Below are positions 3,726 through 12,398 of a stretch of 34,668 nucleotides of DNA, piece after piece. This DNA comes from a virus (taxonomy: Duplodnaviria; Heunggongvirae; Uroviricota; Caudoviricetes), in IMG/VR virus record IMGVR_UViG_2737471865_000001, positions 1 through 34,668 of that record, one strand, 5' to 3'. The notes under the pieces are model-generated. The model saw nothing but the letters and a program-made list of their open reading frames with translations. It ran no database searches and was not told the DNA's origin. Position numbers and translations under genes: made by a program. Position 1 is the first letter of the stretch. Each line of letters begins with the position of its first letter.

Positions 3726-3844
3726 AACGCCTCCAGTTGTTTCTTTGCTGCTCTGATTAATTGTTTAACTCGGCGTGATAATTCAGATTCGTGCGGGTAG
3801 AAAGCGGACATGACGCCGCTACCCGCTAAAATATATTCATTCAT
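3710..3844 (-). CDS. cIII-like small protein (44 aa), not in the ORF track
   Basis: My translation: MNEYILAGSGVMSAFYPHESELSRRVKQLIRAAKKQLEALCAMK. Resembles the lambda cIII N-terminal and central region (M.YAIAG...ESLLERITRKLR) from memory. Start overlaps the HNH stop as TAATG. Confidence 0.4.
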   Translation of the reverse strand: MNEYILAGSGVMSAFYPHESELSRRVKQLIRAAKKQLEALCAMK

Positions 3845-4356
3845 TATTTGCTCCTGTAGAATTCGCCGTGATGCTTTCTGGCAAAGTCGCAGTAAGCTTT
3901 TTTGGCATCTTCTAATTCATTAAAGTACCCTAGATGTTTTTTCTTTCCGTTTAATTTCCCATAGGCAGCCCACTTTCTACTTTCCTTCTTCCATGTGACT
4001 CCTTTGCAACCTGATTTGTTGAGGGTGTTTATTTTACTATTCATTGAATTCTGTGAGTAAGTTGCAAGCCTCAGATTGCAAATTCTGTTATCTGTCTTAA
4101 TGCCATTTATATGGTCGATAATACCTTCAGGCTCAACACCGAAAGTGATAATCCATGCAAGTCTATGTGCAGCATAGTGTCTTCCGTTAATGAAAATCCT
4201 TAAGTAGCCGCTTGTTGTTATTGTTCCGGCAGTTCCACCTATCTTCCTTGCTCCATAAGATTTTAGCCATGTGAACTCACCAGAAATAGGGTTATATTTG
4301 ACAACATTATTAATCTCACTTAGGGAAATTAATTCAAGAATCTTTATAAATGCCAT
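3844..4356 (-). CDS. HNH homing endonuclease with AP2-type DNA-binding domain
   Basis: HNH_3-type motif GIIDHINGIKTDNRICNLRLATYSQN followed by an AP2-like GVTWKKESRKWAAYGKLNGKKKHLGYFNELEDAKKAY. AT-rich coding sequence. The track start is TTG at 4369..4371; ATG at 4354..4356 with an AGGA RBS is more likely. Confidence 0.8.
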   Translation of the reverse strand: MAFIKILELISLSEINNVVKYNPISGEFTWLKSYGARKIGGTAGTITTSGYLRIFINGRHYAAHRLAWIITFGVEPEGIIDHINGIKTDNRICNLRLATYSQNSMNSKINTLNKSGCKGVTWKKESRKWAAYGKLNGKKKHLGYFNELEDAKKAYCDFARKHHGEFYRSK

Positions 4357-4437
4357 TTTATATCCTATCAACTGCGTTCATTAATCAGCGTTTACGCTCA
4401 TGAATAAACACCTCTCGTGAAGCGTTATTGTTATGCA

Positions 4438-5966: not shown

Positions 5967-6617
5967 TTAAGGAAGGTTTGCTAGCTTGGCATCAACGACA
6001 ACGCCAATGATTTTACAGTTCCCATTGATTTCAATCATTGGGTATTGTGGATTGAGTGGTTTCAGGAATTTTCTACCGGCATCAATAACTAACTTTTTGA
6101 ATGTCGCCTCGTTTTCTCCTTCAAGTTTGGCGACTACCAGCTTTCCATTACGTGGTTCGACTTCTGGGTCGACGAGAATAATCATCCCCTCAGGAATACT
6201 CAGTCCTGCCGGGGCAGTCATTGAATCGCCTTTAACGTCGAGCCAAAAAGAGTCTTCAGAACAATCTACCGTTGTGTCGTACCAGTTATCTATTGCACGC
6301 CTATGATATGGCTCTACAGCTTCCATCCAACATCCTGCGCTTACCCAACTAATTAGAGGATACGAACCTCTTGGATCATGCCTGCTGTGATAGGCAATGT
6401 TTGAAAGACTATCCTCTCCTTTCAACAGGTAATCAGGGGAGCACTGCAAAGCCTTGGCTAAGGCCAATAGGTTTTCGCCATTGGGCTCAGTTTCAGATCG
6501 CTCCCATTGGGAAATAGCAACATTAGACACGCCAACCATCTTGCCAAGGGCAGCCTGCCTAATCTTGAGTTCTTTTCTGCGAGCGCGAATACGCTCACCC
6601 ATCAGTTGTGTATTCAT
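5967..6617 (-). CDS. c2: prophage repressor C2 (CI-type; HTH plus LexA-like S24 peptidase domain)
   Basis: 216 aa: N-terminal HTH (QAALGKMVGVSNVAISQWER) and C-terminal autocleavage domain (GDSM...VVAKL). Essentially matches P22 C2 as I recall it. Confidence 0.93.
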   Translation of the reverse strand: MNTQLMGERIRARRKELKIRQAALGKMVGVSNVAISQWERSETEPNGENLLALAKALQCSPDYLLKGEDSLSNIAYHSRHDPRGSYPLISWVSAGCWMEAVEPYHRRAIDNWYDTTVDCSEDSFWLDVKGDSMTAPAGLSIPEGMIILVDPEVEPRNGKLVVAKLEGENEATFKKLVIDAGRKFLKPLNPQYPMIEINGNCKIIGVVVDAKLANLP

Positions 6618-6697
6618 AGTTAAGACATCTTAAATAAACTTGACTTAAGATTCCTTTGGTGGATAATTTAAGTGTTCTTTAATTTCGGAGCGAGTCT
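6618..6697. promoter_or_regulatory. OR region: PR/PRM divergent promoters with three operator-like sites
   Basis: PR has TTGACT (6640..6645) and GATAAT (6662..6667). Operator-like imperfect palindromes: AGTTAAGACATCTTAAAT (6619..6636), a TTAAGATTCCTT-containing site, and ATTTAAGTGTTCTTTAAT (6667..6684). Confidence 0.7.
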
Positions 6698-6883
6698 ATG
6701 TACAAAAAAGATGTTATTGACCACTTCGGAACCCAGCGTGCTGTTGCTAAAGCACTAGGCATTAGCGATGCAGCAGTCTCTCAGTGGAAAGAAGTTATCC
6801 CAGAGAAAGACGCCTATCGATTGGAAATCGTTACAGCTGGCGCCCTGAAGTATCAAGAAAGTGCTTACCGCCAAGCGGCATAA
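6698..6883 (+). CDS. cro: Cro repressor (P22 type)
   Basis: 61 aa MYKKDVIDHFGTQRAVAKALGISDAAVSQWK..., HTH protein directly downstream of PR; matches P22 Cro from memory. Confidence 0.92.
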   Translation: MYKKDVIDHFGTQRAVAKALGISDAAVSQWKEVIPEKDAYRLEIVTAGALKYQESAYRQAA

Positions 6884-6998: not shown

Positions 6999-7295
6999 AT
7001 GGCACAAGCAAGCTACAGCAAGCCAACACAGCGAGAAATTGATCGCGCTGAAACTGATTTACTCATCAACCTGTCAACGCTTACCCAGCGCGGTCTGGCA
7101 AAGATGATTGGCTGTCATGAATCGAAGATAAGCAGAACGGACTGGAGATTTATTGCTTCGGTCTTGTGTGCTTTCGGAATGGCATCAGACATCAGTCCGA
7201 TTAGCAGGGCTTTTAAGTATGCGCTTGATGGACTCACCAATAAAAAACGCCCGGCGGCAACCGAGCGTTCTGAACAAATCCAGATGGAATTCTGA
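6999..7295 (+). CDS. cII: CII-type transcriptional activator
   Basis: 98 aa; C-terminal [19 protein letters not shown] matches the lambda CII C-terminus; HTH in the centre ([16 protein letters not shown]). Confidence 0.85.
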
Positions 7296-7328: not shown

Positions 7329-7478
7329 TGACAAAACAACTCAGTCCTTACCAGGACAAAATTCACAAACACATACTACGTGATCGCTTCCTGTCCAGCT
7401 TCAAGCAGCCTGGTCGATTCCGGGCTGAGTTGGAAAAAGTGAAGCTGATGCAGAAGGAGAAAGGTCATGAGTAATCTT
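7329..7478 (+). CDS. hypothetical small protein (49 aa), not in the ORF track
   Basis: My translation: [55 protein letters not shown]; its stop overlaps the O start. Confidence 0.35.
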
Positions 7479-8327
7479 GCAACCGTAACACATTTAAGGC
7501 CTTCACAACGGCCTGTGGAGCGTCGTGTGGCAGAAGTTGAAGATGGTTATACCCGTCTTGCAAATGCCCTGTATGAAGAGCTTATCGGCGCAGATTTAAC
7601 GAAAAATCAGAGCAAGGTTGCCCACGCCATATGCCGTAAAACATACGGCTACGGTAAAAAGATGGATCGCATCTCTGATAGTCAGTTAGCTCAAATTACC
7701 AGGCTGCCAAGACAGAAGGTAAACAAGGCCAAGAATGAGCTTATCGCGATGAAGGTTATCCTTCGCGAAGGCCAGCAAATCGGGCCTAACAAGAACATCG
7801 AGGAATGGCAAATCGAAGGGTGTCACTACTCTGGTGATAATGTCACTGCATTGGTGACAAAAACTGTCACCAAAACGGTGACAGCGCTGTCACCAAAACA
7901 GGGACACACAAAAGAAACTATTACAAAAGAAAAAAGAAATAATAAAAACACTATGTCCGAAAGTGTTCGGACGGAGTGTGAAAAATCACATGACCGTCAC
8001 GAAGAAACCGACAAGGCATTCGAGGAAATATTCTGGTGTGCAGGCATGCGGAAAGCCGGGAAGAAAAACGCAGCTTCGGCATTCAGAACACAGTTCAGGG
8101 AATGGCGTAAAACTACCAGGGGTACGGCAAGCGAGTTTGCCACGATGCTGGCAGAAGACATCGCATGCAGGAATGGTAAGCAGTTCGGATTCGACAGGTT
8201 GTTACCATCGAGCTATCTGAACGGTCAGCGCTGGAACGACGAGAAGCCAGAAACTATTCAACCACAATCCAAACCATCATCCGCAATCACCGTATCGAAA
8301 ACTGGCTACGTGTTTTTCGACAGGTGA
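7467..8327 (+). CDS. O: replication initiator, lambda O-like N-terminal domain
   Basis: N-terminal [55 protein letters not shown] is the lambda O / Phage_rep_O DNA-binding domain. Internal linker [20 protein letters not shown] is encoded by iteron DNA. Confidence 0.85.
7819..7955. repeat. origin of replication: seven alternating GGTGACA/TGTCACC iteron motifs plus adjacent AT-rich tract, inside the O gene
   Basis: Motif copies at 7821, 7833, 7841, 7853, 7865, 7878 and 7889 at roughly 11-12 bp spacing, followed by an A/T-rich tract 7896..7955 (aaagaaactattacaaaagaaaaaagaaataataaaaac). Same architecture as ori-lambda. Confidence 0.7.
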
Positions 8328-8434
8328 ACCATGAAATCAAAAATCAAATCGCTACTGGTCGCTGGTTATAACCACGGCTGGTTAAGTATTTCGTTTGTCA
8401 ATTTCTGGTTTAAAAATCTCAATCTGAGGGAATC

Positions 8435-11341
8435 ATGACGCCAAGTGAACTTAGCGATCTGCTTTGGGTGCAGGTTGACAGGGTGGCTCCGCACCTGTTG
8501 CCAAACGGCAAGAAAGAGGGGCATGAGTGGGTTGCCGGTAACGTCAACGGTGACAAGGGAAACAGCCTTAAGGTCAACCTTAGCGGCAAGAAAAAATGGG
8601 CTGATTTCGCTGAGGGAGACGGCGGTGACATGCTTGATTTGTGGATGGCATGTCGTGGAATTAACCTGCATCAGGCGATGCATGAAGCGAAAGCATTTCT
8701 CGGAATCAAGGATGACGATCACCATTTCGATGCCAAACGTGAGAAGAAATTCTCCAGACCTGATCGCAAGAAGATCGCCCGCTACGTTACCAGAACAGAA
8801 TCCCATCTTGAGTACCTGCAATCGCGTGGTATATCGCCAGAAATCGTAAAGCGCTACGAGGTTGTCAGCGGCAAGGTGTGGAATGGAGAGCGGGAACTGG
8901 ATGCTCTGGTGATTCCGTACAAACGCGATGGTGAGTTGTTGCAGGTCAAGCGAATCAGCACTGAGCGCCCGGACGGGAAGAAAGTCATTATGGCAGAAGG
9001 TGATTGCGAACCTTGTCTGTTCGGATGGCAGGCTCTGGACGCTGGCGTGAGGGCGGTTGTGCTTTGCGAAGGCGAAATTGATTGTATGAGCTATGCGCAA
9101 TACGGCATCTCGGCGTTATCCGTGCCGTTTGGTGGCGGGAAAGGCGCTAAGCAACAGTGGATTGAGTTTGAGTATCACAACCTCGACAGGTTTGAGGAAA
9201 TATTCATCTCGATGGACGTTGATGATGTTGGTCGTGAAGCCGCAAGGGAAATCGCAAGCCGACTCGGTGAACATCGTTGCCGTCTTGTTACTCTGCCGTA
9301 CAAAGACATCAACGAATGCCTGATGAACGGTGTTACCGAGGATGAAATCTGGCAGTACATTGGCACGGCATCCTACTTCGATCCTGAAGAACTCTACAGC
9401 GCGCGAGAGTTTTACCATGACACTATCAACGCTTTCTACGGCAAGCAGCAGTATCTGTTTAATCCACCGTGGGAATCTCTGGCAGATAAATTCCAGTTCC
9501 GTGAGGCAGAATTGACGCTGGTCAATGGTGTGAACGGTCACGGAAAAGCCTGTCCACTTGATGAACCAATTCTGCTCGCTAATGGTGAATGGACTACTCA
9601 CGGGGATGTAAAAATTGGCGATCAGGTGGCATCAGTAGACGGCAATCCGTCAACTGTCACCGGGATATTCCCGCAGGGTGTTAGAGATGTTTACCGAGTC
9701 ACATTTGAAGATGGTCGTTATGTTGATTGCGCAGGCGATCACCTATGGGAGGTCACTAGTCGTGGATTCACGAAAGGCGAGAAGCGCCGCGTGATAGACA
9801 CCTTCGAGCTGAAACGGTTGAGTGAAACGAAGAGGCACAAAAATGGCGTCAGGATACCCGAAATAACTGGTGACTTTGGCGACCACTCAGAGCCATTAGC
9901 ATGGGTTATCGGCTCCCTTCTCGGGGATGGTAGTCTTAGCAATGGGAGCGTGAAGTTTTCAAACGTCGAGCCATACATGATCGAGCGTATGAAGGCTGAA
10001 CTGCCTGATTACAACTTCTCTGGAGATGGTAAGGACTGGCTGATATCAACGGCGCGTGGTCAGGTAAATCCACTCATGGAGACCCTGCGAGTTTATGGAC
10101 TAATGGGGTGCACAGCAAAAAACAAATTCATCCCTCGTGTGTTTTTTTCCGCAAACAAATCAACGCGTATAGGAATGCTGTGTGGTCTGCTTGAAACGGA
10201 TGGTTATGTCGAGAAGGATGGAACGCTTGTTTTTTCCTCAGCAAGTGAAGAACTGCGTAATGGGGTTGTTCAACTGGTTAACTCACTCGGCGGTTCATGC
10301 CGGACGCGAGTTAAAACTGGCGTGACATACACATACAAGGGCGATAAGCGGCATGGGATGGATTCATATGAGGCAAGGATACGACTGACAAGGGAAATCA
10401 GGGAGGCCATCCGTTCACCACGACTCAATGGCAGATTAACTGCGCATCGATTCGAGGGGTGTGGGGTATTCGTCAGGAATGTTGAAAAAATCGGCAATGC
10501 AGAATGCTTGTGTATCATGGTCGATCACCCTCGCCACCTGTATGTAACCAGAGGATATGTGGCAACGCATAACACCGAGGTTGTCGGGCATATGGCACTT
10601 GAGGCAATGCGTCAGGGTGTGAAGACGTGCATCGCGTCACTTGAGCTGAAGCCTGGTATTCTCCTTAAGCGCCTTACCCGTCAGGCGACGTGCTGCAAGA
10701 TGCCGCCAGTGCTGGAAATTGACTCTGCATTTAAATTTTATGACGAAAGACTTTGGGTGTTTGGTCTGACCGGAACGGCGAAAGCCGACAGGCTGATCGA
10801 AATATTCGACTACGCTCGCCGCCGATACGGCATCCAGTTATTCATCATCGACAGCCTGATGAAATGCGGCATAGGTGACGATGATTATAACGGGCAGAAG
10901 GCGTTTGTTGACTCGATTTGCGACTTCAAAAACAAAACAAACTCCCACGTCATTCTCGTTACTCACTCGCGAAAAGGAGACAGCGAAGAAAAACCAACCG
11001 GGAAAATGGACGTAAAAGGCTCTGGAGCGATAACAGACCTGACAGACAACCTTTTCATCATCTGGCGTAACAAGGCTCGCGAGAGAGCGTTACAGAGAGT
11101 TCAGAGTGGTGAAAAGATGTCAGAGAAGGACGAACAGCTACTGGCATCTCCGGCATCTGTTTTGATGCTTGAAAAACAACGTAACGGCGAAGGTTGGGAA
11201 GGTGGTGTCCCGTTGTTCCTTGACGAGCAATCGCACCAGTTCCTGCAACTTGAATCAGGGTCGCCATATAGCTACATCGCTAATATGCCGAAATCGGAAT
11301 ATGACGAGGCGTGGCGACAGGAAAACGTGACGGAGTATTAA
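8435..11341 (+). CDS. bifunctional DNA primase / SF4 (DnaB/T7 gp4-like) helicase, interrupted by an in-frame intein
   Basis: 968 aa. N-terminal primase region with TOPRIM motifs (VLCEGEIDCMS; ISMDVDDVGRE). P-loop NGVNGHGKA at residues 365..372. C-terminal helicase motifs LFIIDSLM (Walker B), HVILVTHSRKGD and KGSGAITDLTDNLFII align with T7 gp4 helicase motifs. Residues 373..713 are an intein. Confidence 0.88.
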   Translation: MTPSELSDLLWVQVDRVAPHLLPNGKKEGHEWVAGNVNGDKGNSLKVNLSGKKKWADFAEGDGGDMLDLWMACRGINLHQAMHEAKAFLGIKDDDHHFDAKREKKFSRPDRKKIARYVTRTESHLEYLQSRGISPEIVKRYEVVSGKVWNGERELDALVIPYKRDGELLQVKRISTERPDGKKVIMAEGDCEPCLFGWQALDAGVRAVVLCEGEIDCMSYAQYGISALSVPFGGGKGAKQQWIEFEYHNLDRFEEIFISMDVDDVGREAAREIASRLGEHRCRLVTLPYKDINECLMNGVTEDEIWQYIGTASYFDPEELYSAREFYHDTINAFYGKQQYLFNPPWESLADKFQFREAELTLVNGVNGHGKACPLDEPILLANGEWTTHGDVKIGDQVASVDGNPSTVTGIFPQGVRDVYRVTFEDGRYVDCAGDHLWEVTSRGFTKGEKRRVIDTFELKRLSETKRHKNGVRIPEITGDFGDHSEPLAWVIGSLLGDGSLSNGSVKFSNVEPYMIERMKAELPDYNFSGDGKDWLISTARGQVNPLMETLRVYGLMGCTAKNKFIPRVFFSANKSTRIGMLCGLLETDGYVEKDGTLVFSSASEELRNGVVQLVNSLGGSCRTRVKTGVTYTYKGDKRHGMDSYEARIRLTREIREAIRSPRLNGRLTAHRFEGCGVFVRNVEKIGNAECLCIMVDHPRHLYVTRGYVATHNTEVVGHMALEAMRQGVKTCIASLELKPGILLKRLTRQATCCKMPPVLEIDSAFKFYDERLWVFGLTGTAKADRLIEIFDYARRRYGIQLFIIDSLMKCGIGDDDYNGQKAFVDSICDFKNKTNSHVILVTHSRKGDSEEKPTGKMDVKGSGAITDLTDNLFIIWRNKARERALQRVQSGEKMSEKDEQLLASPASVLMLEKQRNGEGWEGGVPLFLDEQSHQFLQLESGSPYSYIANMPKSEYDEAWRQENVTEY
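9551..10573 (+). mobile_element. intein (341 aa) with LAGLIDADG homing-endonuclease domain, inserted in the helicase Walker A loop
   Basis: Begins with Cys immediately after GHGKA (CPLDEPILLANGEW, Hint block A). Two LAGLIDADG-type motifs (VIGSLLGDGSL and LCGLLETDGYV). Ends YVATHN followed by Thr as the +1 extein residue. Flanking exteins together form a contiguous helicase domain. Confidence 0.85.
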
Positions 11342-11744: not shown

Positions 11745-11977
11745 GCAAAATTAAATCTGGTTATCCAGGGAATGGGGAATACCCGAAGCCATATTTACCT
11801 GTAACTGTGACCACTCAATCTAGGCATCCACATCATTTCAAGCAAAGTGGCACAGCTTATTGGAGTGGCAAGCGGTGGATAGGTATTGATGGGTTCAAAA
11901 TTGGGTATGCAAAGGTAATTAAATGGGAATTTAACATCACAAACTGGAGTTCATCCCATGAGGAAACTAACGTTTGA
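11741..11977 (+). CDS. hypothetical protein (78 aa)
   Basis: ORF overlapping neighbours by ATGA-type junctions; no recognisable motif. Confidence 0.4.
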   Translation: MSKIKSGYPGNGEYPKPYLPVTVTTQSRHPHHFKQSGTAYWSGKRWIGIDGFKIGYAKVIKWEFNITNWSSSHEETNV

Positions 11978-12398
11978 ACTAAGAAGCCCCATCCATCAGC
12001 AGAACGCCATTCAAGCTATCCAGCAAATCCTTCCAGACCCAACCAAACCAATCGTAGTAACCATTCAGGAACGCAACCGCAGCTTAGACCAGAATCGAAA
12101 GCTTTGGGCTTGCCTTGGTGACGTCTCTCGTCAGGTTGAATGGCATGGTCGCTGGCTGGATGCAGAAAGCTGGAAGTGTGTGTTTACCGCAGCATTAAAG
12201 CAGCAAGACGTTGTTCCTAACCTTGCCGGGAATGGCTTTGTGGTAATAGGCCAGTCAACCAGCAGGATGCGTGTAAGCGAATTTGCGGAGCTATTAGAGC
12301 TTATACAGGCATTCGGTGCAGAGCGTGGCGTTAAGTGGTCAGACGAAGCGCGAATGGCTCTCGAATGGAAAGCGCGATGGGGAGACAGGGCGGCATGA
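11958..12398 (+). CDS. ninB: NinB (Orf-family recombination mediator)
   Basis: 146 aa; [73 protein letters not shown] matches lambda NinB from memory almost residue for residue. Confidence 0.93.

Follow-up and report, generated by a model that had tools for sequence, protein, structure and literature searches.

Among the origins closest to the one described here, that of phage lambda is placed inside the initiator gene, between the regions that encode the N and C domains of O. Its four annotated 19-bp dyad-symmetric iterons are spaced at 20, 24 and 23 bp and are experimentally defined O-binding sites (PMC6022878, PMC7466680). Dimers of O occupy each of the iterons and assemble into the O-some, which stresses the adjoining A/T-rich region; the minimal unwinding unit consists of the A/T tract and its two adjacent iterons, and O contacts DNA with its N-terminal part and P with its C-terminal part (PMC6022878, PMC7466680, PMC2629481, PMC8022706). 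Origin binding has been assigned to the N-terminal 162 aa (PMC2629481). P is a loader that borrows the DnaB helicase of the host. The origin of P22 (gene 18, gene 12) also has an O-family initiator, four iterons at 20/24/23 bp and a ACACAAAAGA box, and P22 has its own replicative helicase (PMC8022706). The replication genes of phage epsilon34 are very similar to those of ES18 (PMC2629481). In the GenBank record of ES18 we find a rep_origin described as "similar to lambda ori" and a gp61 described as "putative primase/helicase; similar to phage T7 gene 4", and the record of epsilon34 likewise annotates an origin beside a primase-helicase. Phage T7 itself is not known to have an O-like initiator or an iteron origin, and its primase-helicase gp4 needs no origin-binding initiator.

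The window, that is, the whole stretch of 34,668 bp that was analysed, is a P22-like lambdoid E. coli prophage with a canonical early-right operon. We consider it probable that positions 7821-7979 act as its vegetative origin, which would follow the ori-lambda plan and lie in the linker of the initiator; this judgement takes the location, the mechanism and the modular composition proposed below jointly. An earlier note on this DNA had implied that such an arrangement is novel, which it is not, since it is already annotated in the ES18 and epsilon34 records and the latter phage has been described (PMC2629481). The operon around the initiator gene contains the following features.

5967-6617, minus strand: S24-family repressor
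6640-6667, plus strand: pR-like promoter, TTGACT-16-GATAAT, from a consensus scan; upstream of cro, at the position of pR in the P22 and ES18 records
6698-6883: P22-type cro
6999-7295: cII
7467-8327, plus strand: O-like replication initiator gene, 286 aa, with a Phage_rep_O N-domain, an origin-bearing linker and a predicted partner-specific C-domain
11958-12398: ninB

Rightward transcription from the pR-like promoter would cross cro, cII, the O-like gene and the origin.

The probable origin region in the initiator gene

Judged by its sequence, the O-like gene is a true O homologue. The Pfam domain Phage_rep_O covers aa 20-114 of the product (E 1.2e-37), the TIGR01610 model (phage_O_Nterm) gives 105 bits against a curated cutoff of 45.5, the PHROG assignment is 'replication initiation O-like', and 62 of 116 residues of the N-domain are identical to lambda O. 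The open reading frame at 7467-8327 continues without interruption through the iterons, the A/T tract and the inverted repeat. The earlier note was right to place the repeats in frame within this gene, and the peptide TKTVTKTVT comes from iterons 2 and 3 and their spacer. The Pfam domain stops at aa 114 and the iterons begin at aa 119, so that the origin is located in the linker, as in lambda, P22 and ES18. The individual elements are listed here.

7821-7839, no strand: iteron 1, TGTCACTACTCTGGTGATA, one mismatch, codon phase 1 (CHYSGD), over lambda iteron 1 in the alignment
7841-7859, no strand: iteron 2, TGTCACTGCATTGGTGACA, perfect half-sites (no mismatch), codon phase 3 (NVTALVT)
7865-7883, no strand: iteron 3, TGTCACCAAAACGGTGACA, perfect half-sites (no mismatch), codon phase 3 (TVTKTVT)
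7888-7906, no strand: iteron 4, TGTCACCAAAACAGGGACA, one mismatch, codon phase 2 (LSPKQGH)
7907-7950, plus strand: A/T-rich, A-skewed tract of 44 bp directly after iteron 4, predicted DNA-unwinding element
7948-7979, no strand: right-hand inverted repeat, ACACTATGTCCGAA / TTCGGACGGAGTGT, with arms at 7948-7961 and 7966-7979; part of the C-module described below

We see four 19-bp dyad-symmetric iterons in 7821-7906, each of which deviates by at most one mismatch from the consensus TGTCAC-N7-GTGACA. Their start-to-start distances are 20, 24 and 23 bp, equal to the lambda spacing, and neighbouring half-sites are mostly 11-12 bp apart. Seven GGTGACA/TGTCACC motifs had been reported in the earlier note; their location, their alternating orientation and the spacing of about 11-12 bp stand, but the count has to be corrected to eight half-sites, which form four dyads.

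The clustering of these units is far from what is expected by chance. With up to one mismatch, TGTCAC-N7-GTGACA matches four times in the 34,668-bp window, always within the same 86 bp, while 0.075 matches are expected; none of 300 sequences simulated with a first-order Markov model contained a cluster or more than one match. The array also has the top Tandem Repeats Finder score in the window. A scan of the whole window at up to one mismatch gave no further iteron outside the array, and neither a second iteron cluster nor a similarly A/T-rich tract is present elsewhere in the 34,668 bp. At up to three mismatches, 13 matches in the window compare with 12.9 expected by chance, and the heptamer GGTGACA alone is not enriched (88 observed vs 82 expected in the window). 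Minus-strand terminator-like hairpins at 7885-7863, 7895-7876 and 7972-7955 were treated as artefacts of the dyads and the palindrome beside A-runs.

Relatives with diverged O N-domains have four dyads in the same place, but with different half-sites. For example, the half-site is TCCCTC in lambda, TTTACC in P22 and TTAGCC in the Klebsiella phage RCIP0114, which has the spacing 20/24/23. In the Erwinia phage phiEt88 (TGTTACC) and the Citrobacter phage Omnitron (TGTATCC/GGGAACA) the last three units are 24 bp apart.

Could the repeats be a mere by-product of a low-complexity protein linker, with no role of the DNA as such? They are located in the inter-domain linker, after all, and iterons 2 and 3 do give the peptide repeat VT..VT. 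However, iterons 1 and 4, with their other phases, yield the unrelated peptides CHYSGD and LSPKQGH, and coding does not explain why each unit is an inverted repeat. Furthermore, relatives keep four units at 20/24/23 bp while linker peptide and half-site change completely, and the homologous lambda units are the very sites to which O has been shown to bind. We regard a pure linker effect as extremely unlikely. Selection acts on the iteron DNA rather than on the encoded protein, because iterons 1-4, a single type of 19-mer, use all three codon phases between them, because the dyads have no rationale at the protein level and because half-sites are swapped among relatives. As to the units themselves, iterons 1 and 4 are imperfect, an observation that counts against the reading as an origin that we prefer.

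The tract that follows iteron 4 (7907-7950) has 18% GC, compared with 47.5% for the window, is 70% A on the plus strand and belongs to the 44-mers of lowest GC content in the entire window. An A/T-rich tract after the repeats had been noted before, with a length of 60 bp; the tract is there, but it is only about 44 bp long. Over 7907-7939 (CACAAAAGAAACTATTACAAAAGAAAAAAGAAA), 32 of 33 bases equal the A/T-rich region of the lambda origin. In six different O-type specificities a ACACAAAAGA box follows iteron 4 and is in turn followed by an A-rich tract. The window iterons align position for position with those of lambda, and they align over the rep_origin and protein_bind features of P22, ES18 and epsilon34, which, together with the A/T tract, bears out the proposed likeness to ori-lambda.

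Immediately to the right of the A/T tract there is an inverted repeat, absent from the earlier note, with the core GTCCGAA-N4-TTCGGAC at 7955-7972. Lambda has a palindrome in the equivalent place but of another sequence. The repeat is retained in ES18, epsilon34, phi24B-type and LMessi origins; the LMessi version reads GTCCGAT-N4-ATCGGAC and is found just past an A-rich run. Between the window, the phi24B-type phages and LMessi, two base pairs are altered on both arms (C:G to T:A and A:T to T:A), and these paired changes coincide with changed encoded amino acids. They are suggestive of a constraint on the inverted repeat, a hint that comes from two events only. In summary, the region has every part of the ori-lambda architecture that can be read from sequence, namely the linker location, four phased dyads, an A/T tract and a right-hand inverted repeat.

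Next, we looked at variation among copies of the window's O allele. The 58 such copies comprise 49 distinct sequences and have 68 variable sites. No variable site falls between 7865 and 7962, a segment made up of iterons 3 and 4, the A/T tract and the left margin of the palindrome, and among the 48 half-site positions one is variable in the 49 distinct alleles, compared with 3.8 expected. The low polymorphism of the origin is modest evidence for constraint, and only modest because the N-domain also has an invariant run, of 81 bp. In the spacer that separates iterons 2 and 3, position 7864 is a C in the window alone; the other distinct alleles (48/48) have G.

The C-terminal domain and its proposed primase-helicase partner

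The region to the right of the origin encodes the remainder of the initiator and its putative partners.

8001-8252, plus strand: core of the O C-terminal domain (aa 179-262), predicted primase-helicase adaptor
8274-8324, plus strand: C-terminal 17-aa tail of O, found upstream of every close primase-helicase copy, also behind another C-domain body
8331-8438, plus strand: 35-aa ORF, homologue of ES18 gp60 (phrog_21848, E 2.7e-25), with a stop that overlaps the primase-helicase start (ATGA)
8435-11341, plus strand: T7 gp4-like bifunctional primase-helicase, a 968-aa precursor with Toprim_2, AAA_25, Hint and LAGLIDADG domains
9548-10573: intein of 342 aa, which interrupts the primase-helicase in frame at the Walker A motif

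The C-part of the initiator shares 122 of 128 residues with ES18 gp59 and 113 of 116 with the 'O' of phi24B. To the P-binding part of lambda O it has no significant similarity, only a local match of 12/43 (score 36). The C-domain is related to that of the LMessi initiator (60% identity over 85 aa, E 2e-38). No Pfam family was found for it even at E <=10, a sequence search of the PDB gave nothing meaningful, and the only family matches are PHROG 33384 and 270. The different initiator-helicase interaction that the earlier note had suggested gains support from this domain swapping: the contact would differ from that in lambda, because the C-part is shared with ES18 gp59, which adjoins the same type of primase-helicase.

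The claim that the partner is a self-encoded primase-helicase holds up as well. The gene belongs to PHROG 239, 'DNA primase/helicase', and Toprim_2 is located at aa 209-296. With the intein-less homologue from Sf101, the PDB entries 5ikn, 6n7i and 1q57 (T7 gp4) are matched at E ~1e-23, and Twinkle is matched as well. The alignment with T7 gp4 spans aa 192-539 of the intein-less form, which includes TOPRIM and helicase, and the Walker A motif reads GVNGHGKT. As in T7 gp4, a TOPRIM primase and an SF4 helicase are thus predicted in one chain, although the N-terminal 190 aa differ; by this fusion and its Walker A motif the protein is a member of the T7 gp4/Twinkle family.

Class 3 inteins have a non-nucleophilic residue at position 1, Trp at block B:12, Cys at block F:4, Thr at block G:5 and Thr or Ser at +1 (PMC2807308). 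In the window intein we find Ala1, His65-Leu-Trp67, ..CLC*IMV.. and ..ATHN|T, where block F was assigned by its spacing to an aromatic residue and to the C-terminus. Every residue that we read as a class 3 hallmark is retained, and splicing is predicted. Phi24B and Min27, both deposited as Stx2 phage isolates, have the same gene with the intein; Sf101, mEp043 and SEN22 have a primase-helicase without intein.

An intein in Walker A raises the question whether the origin is intact but silent, the prophage copy being defective through an unspliceable intein or through damage elsewhere. The 342-aa insertion in the Walker A motif and the private substitution at 7864 would fit such a case. On the other hand, the intein is in frame with all its hallmark residues (PMC2807308), isolated phages carry the same intein-bearing gene, and the window O differs from that of Sf101 at only 5 of 861 nt. 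A silent origin is, in our view, unlikely. As a separate remark, the prophage may be defective elsewhere.

How closely does the initiator follow its partner? A search for relatives with the primase-helicase itself gave only 99-100% identical copies, and distant relatives were taken from tblastn. Of the records in the phage collection, 39 match the primase-helicase, and as many, 39, match the junction from the O tail to the helicase. Of these junction records, 31 have the complete window-type C-part, and the remaining eight, of S107 and SI8 types, have another C-domain body but keep the same last 17 residues. Wherever the identity of the primase-helicase reaches about 90% or more, S107 and SI8 included, the tail does not vary; no clear conservation is seen in the initiators of LMessi or the Vibrio phage. 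A docking peptide is our hypothesis for this tail and hitch-hiking is also compatible, the two being inseparable because the tail is not clearly kept in LMessi or the Vibrio phage. LMessi, with a primase-helicase that is 61% identical and an initiator N-terminus that is unrelated, nevertheless retains the C-domain, a homologue of the 35-aa ORF and the palindrome beside its primase-helicase. A linker repeat array is present in every initiator that we found beside this primase-helicase family, namely those of the window, ES18, phi24B, S107, the Vibrio phage 1.133.O and the Pseudomonas phage P7869. We also conclude from S107 and SI8 that the window-type C-domain core is not strictly required beside this primase-helicase. 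Co-inheritance of neighbouring genes also arises from proximity.

A different reading is that the origin is of lambda type by descent only, with the primase-helicase loading elsewhere and the iterons being vestigial or serving to regulate O. It can draw on T7 gp4, which works with no origin-binding initiator, and on S107 and SI8, where the primase-helicase tolerates another C-domain body. What speaks against it is that the repeat array persists in the linker of each initiator found next to the family, that 49 alleles show no variation from iteron 3 to the end of the A/T tract, and that the window offers no other iteron cluster or comparable A/T-rich tract. We find loading elsewhere quite unlikely. 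In principle, a gp4-like helicase could load at another place, for example at a site opened by transcription as in T7.

Natural hybrids and the two modules

The origin reading is further characterised by natural hybrids between initiators, which are given below as N-domain and iterons, C-part, and partner.

Lambda: N-domain and iterons of lambda type; C-part of lambda type; P
PhiR12_2: N-domain of window type (145/146) with the same iterons; C-part of lambda type (143/143); P
ES18 and epsilon34: N-domain and iterons of lambda type (ES18 122/126); C-part of window type (122-124/128); gp4-like primase-helicase
Window, Sf101 and mEp043: N-domain and iterons of window type; C-part of window type; gp4-like primase-helicase

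In all of these, the iterons track the O N-domain and the partner gene tracks the O C-part. Up to 7939, base 7864 is the only difference between the window and PhiR12_2, and from 7940 on the two are unrelated. Similarity of the window to the phi24B-type Stx2 phages begins at about 7943. Window positions 7960-8800 are covered in full (100%) by ES18 at 94.4% identity. Breakpoint mapping with PhiR12_2, phi24B and ES18 puts the junction of the N-module and the C-module at 7939/7940, inside the common A/T tract, because the similarity of the window to PhiR12_2 and to the phi24B-type phages switches there. The A/T tract, being shared among lambdoid phages, is a natural substrate for homologous exchange. 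We propose that iterons and N-domain form one module and C-domain and helicase another, that each can be exchanged without the other, and that recombination in this tract would join them.

The origin is common in E. coli. Of 5426 complete genomes, 174 have the window-type N-module, which runs into a window-type C-part in 173 of them; about 120 more complete genomes have the window-type C-part behind a phi24B-type HTH N-domain. Among isolated phages, the O/ori allele of the window is carried by Sf101, mEp043 and vB_EcoP-720R6 (99.4% identity over 534 nt) and by SEN22 (99.1%). All four also share the primase-helicase of the window. The origin feature is unannotated in the Sf101 region that was examined and under the matches in the mEp043, 720R6 and SEN22 records. 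In our literature search, we found no paper on TGTCAC-type iterons and nothing on PhiR12 phages or the Sf101 origin; phi24B, Min27, iterons and the intein were not found in the 'Eru' papers on Stx-phage replication regions.

Proposed initiation and comparison with known systems

By homology, and given that iterons co-vary with the N-domain, dimers of the O-like protein would bind the four iterons through the Phage_rep_O domain and form an O-some. The wrapped complex would then destabilise the adjacent 44-bp A/T tract, as its 32/33 identity to the lambda unwinding element suggests. At the step where the lambda O C-domain captures the P-DnaB complex, the unrelated C-terminal domain may bring the T7 gp4-like primase-helicase of the phage itself to the melted DNA, once this enzyme has matured through splicing of its class-3-type intein. 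The right-hand inverted repeat may be part of a loading or priming site. We infer the steps of recruitment, splicing and loading site because the C-domain, the 35-aa ORF, the palindrome and the primase-helicase are strictly co-inherited. Direct recruitment of the primase-helicase by the O C-terminal domain seems the most likely route, on the basis of genetic linkage only, and from the sequence we likewise infer iteron binding, origin firing and independence of host DnaB.

A more specific version is offered tentatively, as a possibility that may well prove wrong. Residues 179-262 could be a portable adaptor which, together with the 17-aa tail and the 35-aa ORF, delivers the primase-helicase to the origin melted by the O-some. 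GTCCGAA-N4-TTCGGAC could then be the site of loading or first priming, and initiation would be loader-free and independent of DnaB, DnaC and DnaG. In the literature that we searched, no biochemical work turned up on an SF4 primase-helicase that initiates at a specific origin and needs no loader. The natural domain swaps define which half of the initiator pairs with which helicase system, and they make the handover of a melted origin from an O-type initiator to a gp4-type primase-helicase directly testable.

Compared with lambda, the window has the same plan of the origin and a T7 gp4-like primase-helicase in place of the loader P; with an unrelated C-domain and no P-type loader downstream, it falls outside the lambda O/P-type module. 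P22 differs in its C-domain and in its helicase, which is of DnaB type and has no primase domain. The closest match is the ES18-type module, of which the window has all parts in order, that is, a gp59-type C-domain, a gp60-like ORF and a gp61-like primase-helicase. Between ES18 gp61 and the Sf101 primase-helicase, which has no intein, the identity is 94%. ES18 and epsilon34 share with the window the right-hand palindrome, the 35-aa ORF and an origin annotated at the homologous position, but have lambda-type N-domains and iterons and, unlike the window, a primase-helicase without intein.

The 'O' and 'P' of phi24B and Min27 share with the window the C-part, the palindrome, the region of the 35-aa ORF and the intein-bearing primase-helicase. 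This module is also the one by which these medically relevant Stx2 phages replicate. Their N-domain is of HTH_36 type and not Phage_rep_O, and their repeats are G+C-rich units of 21-24 bp (GGGGCAGGAGCTGCCC), apparently variable in number because related initiators span 243 to 272 aa.

In summary, the TGTCAC-type origin is an unannotated specificity within the textbook lambdoid family, to which it adds the binding specificity TGTCAC-N7-GTGACA, common in E. coli. Four dyads at 20/24/23 bp, a ACACAAAAGA box and then an A/T tract make an annotation rule that can be automated. The architecture of the origin and its pairing with a primase-helicase are those already annotated in ES18 and epsilon34.

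A private substitution and a shared tail in the initiator gene

We compared 49 distinct alleles of the window-type O, the one in the window included. At position 7864, in the A-tract spacer that separates iterons 2 and 3, the window has a C (Thr133) whereas all of the other 48 alleles examined have a G (Ser). This C is a substitution private to the window.

The last residues of the same gene have counterparts outside the window type, in the initiators of two Salmonella phages.

Window 8274-8324: C-terminal 17-residue tail of O (sequence not shown), with counterparts in the initiators of S107 (L011 1850-2560) and SI8 (L012 1922-2554)

Both Salmonella initiators have a phi24B-like HTH in the N-domain and a weakly DnaT-like C-domain body that differs from the window type, and both end in the same 17 residues as the window O, upstream of the same primase-helicase. 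The segment may be a docking tail. Alternatively, it may merely be linked to a recombination boundary.

Upstream, in the early region, we see a pR-like promoter (TTGACT-16-GATAAT, 6640-6667, + strand) in front of cro and a strong terminator-like hairpin (7244-7271, - strand) that overlaps the cII 3' end, where lambda and P22 have their oop antisense RNA terminator. In the early-left region there is also a 175-aa ORF (3844-4371, - strand) whose product, judged by eye, resembles a homing endonuclease of the HNH kind that also has an AP2-like DNA-binding domain.

The small ORF and the intein of the primase-helicase

Window 8331-8438: hydrophobic 35-aa ORF, MKSKIKSLLVAGYNHGWLSISFVNFWFKNLNLRES, homologue of ES18 gp60 (phrog_21848)
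Window 9548-10573: intein of 342 aa with a LAGLIDADG endonuclease, residues 372-713 of the primase-helicase (8435-11341), read from sequence

The stop of the 35-aa ORF overlaps the start of the primase-helicase (ATGA), and its conservation reaches the distant phage LMessi.

The intein, which splits the Walker A motif (GVNGHGK|...|TEVV), begins with Ala, contains His65-x-Trp67 and a block F Cys, and ends in Thr-His-Asn followed by Thr at +1. By sequence, these residues are the hallmarks of a class-3 (WCT) intein, as described in mycobacteriophage Bethlehem for its DnaB intein (PMC2807308). In the three phages Sf101, mEp043 and ES18 an intein-size insertion is absent from the primase-helicase; phi24B, Min27, other Stx2 phages and phiKp_30 share the same insertion of intein size.

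Repeats in other initiator genes

In the phi24B-type initiators, the O-type iterons are replaced by G+C-rich repeats of 21-24 bp with the core GGGGCAGGAGCTGCCC (locus L003, 4398-4463; IMG/VR loci L015, L032, L033, L035, L046 and L056). These initiators are 243, 250, 251, 258, 265 and 272 aa long, lengths which suggest that prophages differ in how many repeat units they have. In every case, the window-type O has 286 aa. Short tandem repeats also occur in the inter-domain linkers of initiators adjoining more distant relatives of the primase-helicase.

Linker repeats in initiators
Vibrio phage 1.133.O, L094 1831-1874: 11-bp units
Pseudomonas phage P7869, L095 1692-1728: 10-bp units, GTCACGCAAT
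Salmonella phage S107, L011 2119-2229: 21-24-bp units

Going by these repeats, it seems that in this primase-helicase family the origin generally lies within the initiator gene.
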